Part shown: positions 16,247 through 27,934 of the stretch, piece after piece
Layout of the letters: each line of letters begins with the position of its first letter
How positions within the stretch are numbered: position 1 is the stretch's first letter
NCBI GenBank assembly: GCA_039809905.1
Contig: JBDHVY010000001.1
Coordinates: forward strand, 390,001 to 422,000
Direction of reading: 5' to 3'
DNA: 32,000 bases
DNA from: Candidatus Babelota bacterium
GTDB taxonomy: Bacteria; Babelota; Babeliae; Babelales; Vermiphilaceae
The notes under the pieces: model-generated
Database searches by the model: none
What the model was told of the DNA's origin: nothing
What the model saw: the letters and a program-made list of their open reading frames with translations, nothing else
Translations under genes and position numbers: made by a program

Positions 16247-16342
16247 CTAGCGTATTTCACCTAAATCAGGCAATCGCATTATATAATTCCAAAAATCCCT
16301 TGCCATTATTCCAGCATTTTGTAATTTCTGCAACCATCCACT
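16247..16342 (-). repeat. Conserved 3' tail shared with 18521-18616
   Basis: The first ~50 nt after the stop-proximal end differ at only 3 positions between the two genes. They encode W.QKLQNAG..ARD.WNYIMRLPD.GEIR*, while the rest of the proteins are strongly diverged. Confidence 0.8.
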
Positions 16343-18505
16343 GCCTTGTGATTCTGATGCCCACCAATTTGATTTTTGTGACTGTAACACCTCAGATGCC
16401 CATAAATCATTTGGATGTATCCCAATCTGTCCAGAAGCCACACATTTTATATCAGTAAGCATTTTTTGAACATCATCATCAAATGTATGAAATATTCTTA
16501 CTTGGGCATCGGTTAATTTTCCTGGCTTTTGCCCACTTTGCAAATTATTAAATAATGAAACAAAAAAATTTACTTGGTCAAATGATAGAATTTTATACTC
16601 TAAAGATTTAAATGCTGATACATAGCTATCAGTCATAAACTTCCAAATCAGCAAGTTAGGACTTGATGATAGAAAACCTGAAATAACTTCAGAACCTACT
16701 ACAAGCGTATTCTCATCTGAACTCAATGCTACCGAAAAATTTTTTTCAAATGCCTGCCCATCTTTATGGGTGAATTCACCTATTTTTTCTCCTGTTATAG
16801 CAGAAAAAATAAGTAATTTATTTTTACAACCTGCTATAAGCATTTTTCCATCTGAACTGAATTTTAATGTGTACACAATTTTTTCATCACATACGCACTT
16901 AATCTTTTGTTTCGTTTCAAAAGAATAGATTACAATATGATCTACCACACGTTCTTTGTCACCCATTCGAGGACCCAAACGCAATTTCAAAACGACGGCT
17001 GAAAATTTCTTTGATCCAGGACTCCAACTTGTTACCATTTCATCAGGAAAGGTTTCTTCATCAAATAACTCTGCTATCTCTATTAGTTTATTACTGCCAC
17101 TTTTTAACTTGTATATTTTATTCTCTGATTGGTCATTAAAACGACCCATAAAGAAAATTTCATCTCTACCCAAACTGAAAAGTCTACTTATGAGAAAATT
17201 CGGCAAATCAAATAGCTTATAATCTATTGTTTCCGGTTTTTGGTCATCATATATTCCTATAACAAACTTATTTTGATGATCTTTATAATAAAATAATACT
17301 CTTTTATTATCTAATGTCATATCATGGTATAAATATTTTATAGAATTATTAGGCAAAGGTATCGTTATTACTTTTTCTATTGCACAGTCAAAAACCTTGA
17401 ACATAGAGAGTCGGTTATCTATGCAAGCAAATTTATCTTTATTAATCCATATTATAGCGGTTTCATAGATCTTATCTTCTAATTTTTGATAAAAACTTCC
17501 ATCCCTTTTCAGTACATAAATCCATTCTTTATCAAGAGGAGTGGATTCATTATATTGATCAGTTGCAATAAGGATTCGATTATCATCAGGACTAAACGCT
17601 GCACTTTTAACTTCAACTCCAGAACTTCCACTCCCATATAAATAAAGCTTTGGCACACTATCTATTTTTTTGTTTTTTATAAGAAATAGTTTCATTTTTT
17701 CTAAAAATACATTCCATTTTGTCCCTATTATCTCATTCAATAAATTCCGATCCATAGATCTCAATAGTTGCATATTGTTATCGGTGAGTTGTTGATCGCC
17801 GTCAAAAAAAGCATTTGTTTTTTTCTGAATTTTTTCAATAAAAGGATTAATAATTCCTTTATTAACATCAAGAAAACTGGCAAAGCTCAAAAGTGAAGCT
17901 GATGTATTAAAATCAAACGATTGAACATCTTTTTTTATTACATCCTCACACTCTTCTCTTTTCTCAGATGACGGACATTTTTCTAGAAGATCATGAAACA
18001 TGATTACAACATTTTTCGAGAAATCAACAATGAGTGGCTTACTTAGAAAATCATTTTTTGAAACTTCTTCTTCTGTTTTTTCTTCACCAATAAATATTAG
18101 ATTTTTCAAAAACTTACTTTTACGCCAGATATCCTTTTGCCAAACCTGTAAAAGTTGCCCTGATTTATCATACAGATAAACATTATTAAAATCGCCCTCC
18201 AATCCTTGACTGAGTCGATTTAATTGTTCTCTTTCCCCTTGTTCTTTCTTAACTCTGAATCGCTCCTCTTCTAACTCAAGTTGTTCTTTGTTTTCTTGTT
18301 CTTGTCTAAGTTGCTTTTGTCTAGGATGCTCTCGCTCGCTAACCATTTTAAGCGTCGATGGTGATATGGATGATTTTTTCATTCTTTCGGTAATTGCATA
18401 AGGAACTTTTGTTGGACGCATCGCATTTATCTGAAAAACAAAACTCAAGAGACTAAGCATTATCGTGAGTGCATTAATTTTTAAATATTTTCTTTTAAAA
18501 TTCAT
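16247..18505 (-). CDS. Secreted Skp1/BTB(POZ)-like + beta-propeller protein (family member 1)
   Basis: AGGAG SD site and a signal/anchor sequence. POZ-fold-like segment at aa ~107-228 (nt 17822-18187): VYLYDKSGQLLQVWQKDIWRKSKFLKNLIF...PLIVDFSKNVVIMFHDLLEKC...LLSFASFLDVNKGIINPFIEKI. Propeller-type repeats: FSPDDNRILIA, FSSDGKMLIAGCKN, LSSDENTLVVGS. Conserved C-terminal tail. Confidence 0.75.
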   Translation of the reverse strand: MNFKRKYLKINALTIMLSLLSFVFQINAMRPTKVPYAITERMKKSSISPSTLKMVSEREHPRQKQLRQEQENKEQLELEEERFRVKKEQGEREQLNRLSQGLEGDFNNVYLYDKSGQLLQVWQKDIWRKSKFLKNLIFIGEEKTEEEVSKNDFLSKPLIVDFSKNVVIMFHDLLEKCPSSEKREECEDVIKKDVQSFDFNTSASLLSFASFLDVNKGIINPFIEKIQKKTNAFFDGDQQLTDNNMQLLRSMDRNLLNEIIGTKWNVFLEKMKLFLIKNKKIDSVPKLYLYGSGSSGVEVKSAAFSPDDNRILIATDQYNESTPLDKEWIYVLKRDGSFYQKLEDKIYETAIIWINKDKFACIDNRLSMFKVFDCAIEKVITIPLPNNSIKYLYHDMTLDNKRVLFYYKDHQNKFVIGIYDDQKPETIDYKLFDLPNFLISRLFSLGRDEIFFMGRFNDQSENKIYKLKSGSNKLIEIAELFDEETFPDEMVTSWSPGSKKFSAVVLKLRLGPRMGDKERVVDHIVIYSFETKQKIKCVCDEKIVYTLKFSSDGKMLIAGCKNKLLIFSAITGEKIGEFTHKDGQAFEKNFSVALSSDENTLVVGSEVISGFLSSSPNLLIWKFMTDSYVSAFKSLEYKILSFDQVNFFVSLFNNLQSGQKPGKLTDAQVRIFHTFDDDVQKMLTDIKCVASGQIGIHPNDLWASEVLQSQKSNWWASESQGSGWLQKLQNAGIMARDFWNYIMRLPDLGEIR

Positions 18506-18520
18506 TTTGTCTCCTAAAAA

Positions 18521-26729: not shown

Positions 26730-26737
26730 GGAAAAAA

Positions 26738-27934
26738 ATGAAGCGTATTTCAACAGTTCTGCTTATGTGCATAATAGGTAATTATTCCCTTGTTGCAATG
26801 AATATTATAACACGCACTCAATCAGATAAAGGATTAGATGAAATTGTTGCTGTAATGGATAAAGCAATAAATGAAGAACATTCTTCAAGACCACATTTTC
26901 TTATAAGCATGACGCCTCGACCACATTATCTCAGAAGCTTATACGCTGCTGTTTGCTCAATTCCAAGAAAATGTTATCCCTCTATTATTTTAACGAAAAA
27001 ACTTCTTGATAAACTTCATAAAAAAAACACTGTTTTTGCAGAAGCAATTAGTTTCTTTTCTTCAAAGATCTCAGATAATTTTAGCACTGTTTCTCCTGAA
27101 ACTATCAATACCATTGATTCACCTGAAATATTTACGCAATTACTTATAGGCTATGATACCAAGTTTGTAGATCAAGCGATTATAAGCTTTATTATAGAAT
27201 TAGCAAAAAAAAATACGACTTATGAATATCAGATGTATTTACCCGTTGGAGCTGATATCATTGATTTTGATATATGTCCTGCTACAGATAGGACTATTAT
27301 TAGCTCTGGAGATAAAAGACCCTATACTTTATGTCTATGGGATCTTAAAACAGTAACTCCGCTCCATACATTTGAAGAAGAGAAATGCGTTTCAAAAATA
27401 TGTTTTAATAGCAATGGCGACCAACTAGCAGGAATATTGCATGATAGTGAGGAATCTCGCATAAAAATATGGGATATTCCATCAAGAAATATACTTCATT
27501 CTATTCTCTGCGACGCTATTCCTTTTCACATCATGTATACAGATTCTCATGAAAATGTTCTTTGCGCTAATCATCAAAAAACATCTGATAAAACATATAC
27601 AACCATGTTGAAGATTAATAAAAAAGATTATCAAGATTTAGGAAGCGCACCTCTTCTCTGGGACTTTTTTACAATAGAAAAACGCATAGTACAGAAAAAA
27701 AATTATTGTGGCAGCCGATACCATCACTTATTTTCAGACAAAAAACTGTTAGTTATAAAAAGCAACTGCCATGAAATGTATCTTTGTAATCAATCAGTAC
27801 CGAAGGCAAATGACATGCATTCGCTCAATAGTATTAAAGCATCAAATCCTTATCAAGAATTAACACCTTATGAAAAAGGTAAAATAAATGAAGCTTTAGA
27901 GGATAGGAAAAAATACCTGCCAGAAACCAAGTAA
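26738..27934 (+). CDS. Secreted WD40-like repeat protein, tandem paralog (family member 5)
   Basis: AAGGA SD site and signal peptide MKRISTVLLMCIIGNYSLVA. WD-like blades (TLCLWDLKTVTPLHTF, ICFNSNGDQLAG...RIKIWDIPSRNILHSI). Collinear with 25599..26729 (ELAKKNTTYEYQ versus EAAYKNIPYRYE). Confidence 0.75.
   Translation: MKRISTVLLMCIIGNYSLVAMNIITRTQSDKGLDEIVAVMDKAINEEHSSRPHFLISMTPRPHYLRSLYAAVCSIPRKCYPSIILTKKLLDKLHKKNTVFAEAISFFSSKISDNFSTVSPETINTIDSPEIFTQLLIGYDTKFVDQAIISFIIELAKKNTTYEYQMYLPVGADIIDFDICPATDRTIISSGDKRPYTLCLWDLKTVTPLHTFEEEKCVSKICFNSNGDQLAGILHDSEESRIKIWDIPSRNILHSILCDAIPFHIMYTDSHENVLCANHQKTSDKTYTTMLKINKKDYQDLGSAPLLWDFFTIEKRIVQKKNYCGSRYHHLFSDKKLLVIKSNCHEMYLCNQSVPKANDMHSLNSIKASNPYQELTPYEKGKINEALEDRKKYLPETK

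Follow-up and report, generated by a model that had tools for sequence, protein, structure and literature searches.

A Skp1-type POZ domain joined to a beta-propeller in predicted signal-peptide proteins of a Candidatus Babelota bacterium

Do the proteins encoded beside groESL in a Candidatus Babelota bacterium copy the substrate adaptors of eukaryotic ubiquitin ligases? The question was raised by five open reading frames (ORFs; labelled m1 to m5 by position) at 16247-27934 of the window, that is, the whole 32,000-nucleotide stretch of DNA analysed here (positions 390,001 to 422,000 of contig JBDHVY010000001.1; source contig 1.23 Mb, window GC content ~33%). A sequence-only reading of this DNA had described the five as one locally amplified family of secreted mimics of the host ubiquitin system. 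Profile searches and structural modelling gave good support for a Skp1-type POZ domain at the N-terminus of m3. Profile comparison showed m1, m2 and m3 to be one divergent family, homologous in the N-terminal POZ domain and in a C-terminal helical module of ~50 residues. By the same kind of comparison, m4 and m5 are a separate paralogue pair outside the m1-m3 family.

The Pfam family Skp1_POZ (PF03931; gathering score 21.9 bits) matched m3 with 24.9-27.5 bits and the protein P0002 with 25.5 bits. Both scores were above the gathering score, and the match spanned only profile positions 11-44 of 62. P0002 is the m3 orthologue (52% identity), also adjoins groEL, and was the only m3 homologue found among 5.8 billion proteins; a metagenome scan for further m3-type members gave only an unrelated WD40 protein. 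When the two-sequence N-domain profile of m3 and P0002 was compared with the sequences of the PDB at an expectation value (E) of up to 10, 23 of the 24 matches were Skp1 (best E 0.025), and one of these alignments extended through the LILAANYLDI helix. The AlphaFold2 model of m3 residues 25-171 reached a predicted local distance difference test score (pLDDT) of 80-90 over its first 103 residues, with the order b-b-a-b-a-a-a-a of strands and helices. In a Foldseek search of the PDB with the m3 N-domain model, the top 39 matches were all Skp1 (E 2e-5 to 2e-3, probability 1.0, template modelling score 0.52-0.68), at an identity of just 17-21%, and generic BTB (SPOP) appeared only from rank 40. 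The best match in a viral structure library was a Pandoravirus Skp1; poxvirus BTB-Kelch proteins and SKP1/BTB/POZ proteins of giant viruses came next. Neither generic BTB (PF00651) nor BACK was matched by Pfam in the five proteins or in 13 N-domains of the m1/m2 family. Two Skp1 alignments that the sequence-only reading had made by eye, MIEDVGADQAIPL with MLEDLG..PVPL and LLQCANYLGI with LILAANYLDI, were reproduced by software. Its suggestion that the domain fused to the propeller is of the Skp1 and not of the generic BTB kind is strongly supported for m3 by Pfam, the PDB profile search, AlphaFold2 and Foldseek, and moderately for m1 and m2 by profile-profile comparison.

Taken singly, m1 and m2 gave no Skp1_POZ match at the gathering score. 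Their N-domains were without a Pfam or PDB match, and the full sequence of m2 was without a Pfam, NCBIfam or PDB sequence match. A HMMER search of 1.84 billion representative proteins with the m1/m2 alignment gave 29 proteins at E < 1e-3, 16 of which, at E < 1e-10, had the same layout. A family N-domain profile built from 13 sequences was collinear with the m3 N-domain over 120 columns (E 4.7e-5, probability 68%). In hhalign it was aligned over 93 columns (E 5.9e-4) with a Skp1 alignment of four sequences, the human one of which agrees with the PDB alignments. Column-shuffle controls gave z scores of 9.9 against m3 and 9.2 against Skp1, the real score being reached by 0 of 50 shuffles; the same test on the accepted pair of m3 and Skp1 gave a z score of 6.0. 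With a merged profile of m1/m2 and m3, Skp1 was within the top ten PDB matches and was aligned along the entire POZ fold (positions 15-122 against Skp1 11-128), though only at E 0.16. The top PDB match of the m1/m2 N-profile, MntR (E 0.023), was judged spurious. The N-domain of m1 and m2 is probably a POZ domain, an assignment that we hold with fair confidence.

All five ORFs were found where the sequence-only reading had placed them, and their gene models were matched by independent calls on two identical metagenome-derived contigs. As it had also described, the set was split into two blocks by rpe-groES-groEL, with m1 and m2 on one side and m3 to m5 on the other; in related organisms these housekeeping genes also mark the position of the family in a conserved way. 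The features are as follows (an arrow marks a predicted cleavage site).

16247..18505, minus strand: m1, an ORF of 752 residues and full-length paralogue of m2; predicted signal peptide, residues 1-28 (...FQINA↓M); charged low-complexity leader, ~50-100; Skp1-type POZ-like N-domain and helical linker, ~103-290; divergent beta-propeller, ~290-620; C-terminal helical module, ~621-690 (KLTDAQVRIF...VQKML); S/Q-rich linker; conserved terminal helix ending LPDLGEIR.
18521..20701, minus strand: m2, 726 residues as called, with the layout of m1.
20754-21410, minus strand: rpe, a housekeeping gene between the two blocks.
21714-21998, plus strand: groES, a housekeeping gene between the two blocks.
22011-23645, plus strand: groEL, a housekeeping gene between the two blocks.
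23738..25426, minus strand: m3, 562 residues, with Pfam matches to Skp1_POZ and WD40; predicted signal peptide or anchor, residues 1 to ~22; Skp1-type POZ domain, 25-128; helical linker, 129-175; seven-bladed WD40/PD40-like propeller, 176-496; C-terminal helical module, 497-558 (TLTADQAQLI...LLSDAERKIY...VQALF).
25599..26729, plus strand: m4, 376 residues, with a WD40 match of 27.3 bits at residues 163-196; predicted signal peptide; helical N-region, 21-160; two canonical WD40 blades, ~163-250; one or two further, degenerate blades; short tail with DLTEYEQDIL.
26738..27934, plus strand: m5, 398 residues, a paralogue of m4 (23% identity) that shares its layout and lies 8 base pairs (bp) downstream of it.

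The m2 gene shares its strand with m1 and rpe, 15 bp upstream of the former and 52 bp downstream of the latter. It was called from a TTG at 20701, and an alternative GTG, with GGGGGGGTGG just before it, is present at 20677. The GTG is probably the true start, since the resulting N-terminus (MNKKIIF..., giving MNKKIIFCIAIFVVQISG↓MM) resembles those of other family members.

In m3, the POZ-fold domain is followed by a closed beta-propeller in one chain, as in BTB-propeller adaptors. The WD40 match of m3 scored 31.1 bits, and seven blade repeats were recognisable, with FSPDG/FTPDG motifs of the PD40-like kind in the blades. m1 had a weak WD40 match at residues 542-563, which at 24.4 bits fell short of the cutoff (27), and the propeller region of m1 and m2 covers ~335 residues. 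Identity between m3 and P0002 was 59% in the POZ core, 47% in the propeller (23-33% in blades 5-6) and 73% in the C-terminal module. A WD40-like propeller had been claimed for all five proteins. WD40 or propeller matches were indeed obtained for m1, m3, m4 and m5, and m2 is included through its full-length paralogy with m1; in m4 and m5, however, only about two canonical blades were found, within ~180 residues.

How these proteins are related was addressed by all-versus-all BLASTP. It linked only m1 with m2 (E 3e-74, 29% identity, full length) and m4 with m5 (E 4e-10), and left m3 unlinked to any of the other four. In profile-profile comparison of m1/m2 with m3/P0002, the first join was made by the last blades and the C-terminal helices (E 2.8e-4). 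When the C-terminal segment was taken alone, m1/m2 matched m3 over 47 columns with a probability of 89%, an E of 2e-6 and a z score of 11.7 against 60 column shuffles. The short C-terminal motif that had been noticed in all five proteins was therefore found to be part of a real module of ~50 residues in m1 to m3. For m4 and m5 the match to it was marginal: only 11 residues (LT.YE..) could be aligned, with a z score of ~2 that was reached by 3-4 of 60 shuffles. The BLASTP and profile links thus leave m1 to m3 apart from m4 and m5, and the single five-member family was not borne out. The distribution of the m1-m3 family was very narrow, with two m3-type and ~16 m1/m2-type proteins among the billions of sequences searched. 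These searches showed it to be confined to a small group of related small-genome bacteria.

Is the family a product of recent local amplification, as had been supposed? Three related loci (L083, L084 and L086) were compared with the window. In L083, the m3 orthologue P0002 stands beside groEL-groES, and GroEL is 93.6% identical. The order in L084 is AAA, groEL, groES, rpe, a 725-residue protein, a 744-residue protein, a small ORF, a dCache sensor, a binding protein, two RRM proteins and an outer-membrane protein; GroEL is 95% identical there and the other neighbours 64-85%, against 32% for m1 and ~24% for m2. L086 reads groES, rpe, a 710-residue protein, a 706-residue protein and a small ORF, with the two paralogues overlapping by 8 bp. 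A tandem pair of the m1/m2 type is accordingly found beside rpe in at least three organisms, and it is the fastest-evolving part of the neighbourhood. To judge from this synteny, the m1/m2 pair is an old, retained feature, its place being the same in three organisms or more. It did not arise by recent amplification at this locus, and the picture of a locally amplified battery was not supported. A crude distance tree suggested two clades, with both m1 and m2 in the clade of the rpe-distal copies, which is indicative only at 20-30% identity.

A small ORF directly follows the m1-type gene in three organisms (window 15657-16178, minus strand; L084 10318-10761; L086 5887-6327). It encodes 146-173 residues with a membrane anchor and a beta-rich domain, and the window copy is 43% identical to that of L084. 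The small ORF may work with the m1/m2 pair.

The next question was where the proteins might act. The N-termini of all five consist of one or more basic residues followed by a hydrophobic stretch, with a maximal 10-mer hydropathy of 2.6-3.6 in a heuristic test of hydropathy and charge. Such N-termini would fit the signal peptide or anchor ascribed to each of the five. The m1/m2 family has a conserved cleavage-like site (...Q-I-[DN]-A↓M), which is AXA-like. The N-terminus of m3 may be an anchor rather than a signal peptide, since its c-region is atypical. At the extreme C-terminus (16247-16400 in m1, 18521-18680 in m2), proteins of the m1/m2 family carry an S/Q/P-rich linker and an amphipathic, Trp/Tyr-rich helix ending in LPxSG (LPD[LS]GEIR in m1 and m2). 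Models of known sorting domains did not match this conserved C-terminus, which may be an anchoring or export signal.

These features are compatible with an alternative in which m1 to m3 are envelope or surface proteins, kept in the periplasm or on the surface, with the POZ-like domain serving only for oligomerisation. Their fast divergence would then reflect surface exposure, for example in host-cell recognition or adhesion. Apart from the predicted signal peptides, several observations would suit it: the m1/m2 pair and the small membrane protein are kept beside rpe-groESL in three organisms, the 8-bp overlap in L086 suggests that the paired genes are made together, and the C-terminal helix with its LPxSG end could anchor or sort the protein, although no known sorting domain was detected. 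There is also a likeness to TolB, which has the same outline of signal peptide, alpha/beta N-domain and beta-propeller; the last blades of m3 gave a weak TolB match (7mx5_A, E 0.082), and the PD40-like motifs of the blades point the same way. However, no match to TolB_N, PD40 or another bacterial propeller family was obtained in Pfam and NCBIfam, and the fold matches of the m3 N-domain were eukaryotic Skp1, not TolB. Homology to TolB was rejected on these grounds, there being no NCBIfam TolB match either. Moreover, elsewhere Skp1-type POZ domains belong to eukaryotes or viruses (PMC1257465; viral structure library). We regard an envelope or surface role as rather unlikely, though it is the main rival of the adaptor reading given below.

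Skp1 is a free-standing protein of ~160 residues, whereas the domain described here stands behind a predicted signal peptide and shares its chain with a propeller. With eukaryotic Skp1, the m3 N-domain shares the POZ fold, a family-level sequence signal, the MxED.G...IPL segment and the equivalent of the LILAANYLDI helix, the last of which is also present in the m1/m2 family (CANYLGI in m2). Skp1 proteins normally consist almost only of the BTB core and two F-box-binding helices, and a PxPN motif in strand B3 provides part of their contact with Cul1 (PMC1257465); in the proteins described here the PxPN motif is not kept and the F-box-binding helices are undetectable. The BTB-BACK-Kelch (KLHL) adaptors of Cul3 offer a parallel in layout, with a POZ-fold domain, a helical linker and a beta-propeller in one chain, and poxvirus BTB-Kelch proteins were among the structural matches of the m3 N-domain. 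The differences lie in the POZ domain, which is Skp1-type here and not a dimeric 'long-form' BTB, in the propeller, which is WD40/PD40-like and not Kelch, in the lack of BACK and Pfam BTB matches, and in an extra conserved C-terminal helical module. Stogios et al. proposed that a BTB-BACK-Kelch protein is, in one chain, the equivalent of Skp1 together with an F-box protein (PMC1257465), and in the light of that proposal the analogy with BTB-Kelch adaptors of Cul3, drawn by the sequence-only reading, was judged reasonable.

The best-supported reading, which we hold to be about as likely as not, is that m1 to m3 are exported single-chain mimics of a cullin-RING ligase substrate adaptor that act on a eukaryotic host. 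If so, the proteins would be exported beyond the periplasm into the host, the POZ domain, in the manner of Skp1, Elongin C and BTB domains, would bind a host cullin at its N-terminal domain, and the propeller would pick host proteins that would then be ubiquitinated and degraded or relocated. The fast divergence of the propellers would fit an arms race with host targets.

A number of observations weigh against such a role. A Sec signal peptide alone brings a protein only as far as the periplasm, and the steady linkage to housekeeping genes could instead speak for a function in the bacterial envelope. The segment at the position of PxPN reads AIPLTSP in m3, AIPLAGS in P0002, AINIEFS in m2 and PLIVDFS in m1, so that the Cul1-contact motif is absent from all four; a PxPN-like segment was found only in the relative P0011 (SPVPISYP). 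The C-terminal F-box-binding helices of Skp1 (Pfam Skp1, PF01466) were not matched at E <= 1 in the five proteins, and the helices after the POZ core had a pLDDT below 50 in the m3 model. For m1 and m2, the AlphaFold2 model of the m2 N-domain, made from a two-sequence alignment, had a pLDDT of 55, and a fold search with it gave nothing informative; the family N-profile alone gave no Skp1 or BTB match in the PDB or Pfam, and its alignment with Skp1 ends at the ANYL helix, at Skp1 position 114. Because the Skp1 C-terminal domain is undetectable, F-box binding in the manner of Skp1 is unlikely for m1 to m3.

The same losses bear on another explanation, in which the proteins would be Skp1 decoys. 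On this view, host Cul1 or host F-box proteins would be tied up by the Skp1-like domain, or a host factor by the propeller, and turnover dependent on the Skp1-Cul1-F-box (SCF) ligase would be blocked rather than redirected. The domain is specifically Skp1-like and not generic BTB, and an interface changed by the loss of PxPN and of the F-box-binding helices is compatible with altered or non-productive binding. Those losses, however, speak equally against any binding of Cul1 or F-box proteins, and a big, fast-evolving propeller is easier to explain as a device for substrate recognition. A decoy function is in our opinion improbable.

A bolder form of the adaptor proposal would make m1 to m3 an effector class without prior description, with a Skp1-type POZ domain fused to a substrate-binding propeller and plugging into host Cul1 or another cullin without an F-box protein. 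The groESL-adjacent m1/m2 pair might be a POZ-mediated heterodimer, and the C-terminal module with the LPxSG tail might be a new export or host-targeting signal in bacteria without type III or type IV secretion systems. Taken jointly, these suppositions are rather unlikely to hold all at once. No description of a bacterial Skp1-type POZ-propeller fusion was found in the searchable literature, whose incomplete coverage makes this weak evidence.

That intracellular bacteria and giant viruses of protists imitate components of the host's ubiquitin ligases is already well known, examples being F-box, U-box, BTB-LRR and BTB-Kelch proteins. The present proteins have in common with the bacterial mimics that eukaryote-like ubiquitin-system domains occur in intracellular bacteria of protists, where they are used or proposed to redirect host ubiquitination. 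They differ in that the bacterial examples are F-box receptor mimicry or a generic BTB joined to leucine-rich repeats (LRR), not a Skp1-type POZ domain with a propeller. Legionella effectors, furthermore, use a type IV secretion system and not Sec signal peptides. Examples include the F-box of Legionella AnkB, the BTB-LRR proteins of the Parachlamydia-related symbiont UWE25 and the F-box, RING, deubiquitinase (DUB) and Ulp1 set of Babela (PMC2790608, PMC1257465, PMC4378268). The SKP1/BTB/POZ proteins of giant viruses (Pandoravirus, Orpheovirus and Pithovirus, and the BTB/POZ and WD-repeat family of mimivirus) are likewise POZ-fold proteins expanded in parasites of protists, BTB being the second-largest paralogous family of mimivirus (PMC1876218). 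Unlike m1 to m3, they lack signal peptides and are mostly generic BTB; the likeness to m3 that was found is structural.

There remained the question of m4 and m5. Besides the WD40 match given above, m4 matched many beta-propeller families, and m5 gave weak propeller matches. When the m4/m5 profile was compared with the PDB, 157 WD40 proteins were matched, all at profile positions 171-256 (~85 residues, or two blades). A closed seven-bladed propeller in an m4 or m5 monomer is unlikely, because only ~180 residues are available. The N-region of the pair scored at the level of shuffled controls against POZ/Skp1 profiles (z <= 0.9), and a POZ domain in m4 and m5 was rejected on that background. No F-box family of Pfam was matched at E <= 10 in any of the five proteins, nor was a BTB family in m4 and m5 at that threshold, and hhalign of the m4/m5 N-region with an F-box alignment of six sequences gave a z score of -0.4. 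An F-box in m4 and m5, or in the post-POZ helices of m1 to m3, was rejected on the empty Pfam result and the shuffle-level hhalign score; the F-box-like stretch tentatively seen in m4 was not confirmed. As a separate observation, the profile of the N-region (m4 residues 21-160, 25659-26078; m5, 26798-27247) gave a borderline match to the C-terminal helical domain of the deubiquitinase USP25 (6hem_A, E 0.009), in a weak alignment of low identity.

These results bear on the original idea that all five proteins are one locally amplified family of E3-adaptor mimics, with m4 and m5 as SCF-type receptors of the F-box-like plus WD40 kind. The canonical WD40 repeat of m4, the predicted signal peptide and LT[EP]YE motif of m4 and m5, which aligned with LTDxEK of m1 to m3 in both comparisons, and the position of the two genes directly adjoining m3 speak for it. 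With F-box and POZ scores at background, a motif match at the level given above, only about two canonical blades, and m4 and m5 missing from L083, L084 and L086, the idea has become very improbable. m4 and m5 are probably further secreted WD40 host-interaction proteins, for which a link to the ubiquitin system is not demonstrable.

The slot between groEL and the AAA gene (23646-27970) holds m3, m4 and m5 in the window, a gene of the 251-residue type and the m3 orthologue in L083, and only ORFs of 45 and 251 residues, none of m3 to m5, in L084 (1204-2667). On this comparison, the slot is a hot spot of gene turnover among close relatives. Between the convergent m5 and AAA genes there is a GC-rich hairpin at 27942-27965 (GGCCCCCGCG...CGGGGG) with T-runs on both strands, which looks like a bidirectional intrinsic terminator. 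Terminator-like sites were commoner than expected in the region (16 found against 7.3 expected), and an Rfam scan of the window gave no match. The AAA+ ATPase itself (27971-29941, minus strand) begins with a signal peptide or anchor and combines an FtsH/CDC48-like AAA module with long helical flanks; a protease domain was not detected. Its position is kept in L084 (44% identity), and it recalls the family of signal-peptide AAA fusions in Babela (PMC4378268).

On the other side of the m1/m2 block, two paralogous ankyrin-repeat proteins (E 1.5e-57) are encoded at 12886-15582 on the minus strand. Both have a signal peptide and one more hydrophobic segment, and they share a C-terminal domain that is not of the ankyrin kind. 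Since the pair is missing from the syntenic L084, it is an insertion specific to this lineage, placed between the dCache sensor gene and the small ORF. At 8671-12911 (plus strand), the gene of a UrtA-like periplasmic binding protein overlaps by 4 bp that of a 999-residue membrane protein, in which double dCache domains but no output domain could be recognised; the two are kept in L084 with 71% and 66% identity. Two tandem RRM-type RNA-binding proteins with Gly/Arg-rich tails, 77-85% identical in L084, are encoded at 7668-8552 (plus strand).

The small genome and the neighbouring signal-peptide ankyrin proteins fit the intracellular-parasite setting that had been assumed, and the pattern is as described for Dependentiae (PMC6561590, PMC4378268). 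In Chromulinavorax destructans, signal peptides are present on 44% of the coding sequences, and 78% of its 98 ankyrin proteins have one (PMC6561590). Babela massiliensis has signal-peptide ankyrin, WD40 and other propeller proteins together with a large ubiquitin-related set (F-box, RING, DUBs, Ulp1), which were read as secreted into the host (PMC4378268).

If m1 to m3 prove to be envelope components, the finding shrinks to an unusual recruitment of a domain. If they are adaptor mimics, a copy of Skp1 with its own propeller and signal peptide would be a solution unlike the known ones: it would bypass the F-box step and let the parasite supply host cullins with a substrate receptor of its own. 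The family could also help to explain how effectors are delivered and targeted in Dependentiae-like bacteria, whose large predicted secretome depends on Sec signal peptides, and it offers a natural example of the evolution of the Skp1 POZ domain outside eukaryotes.

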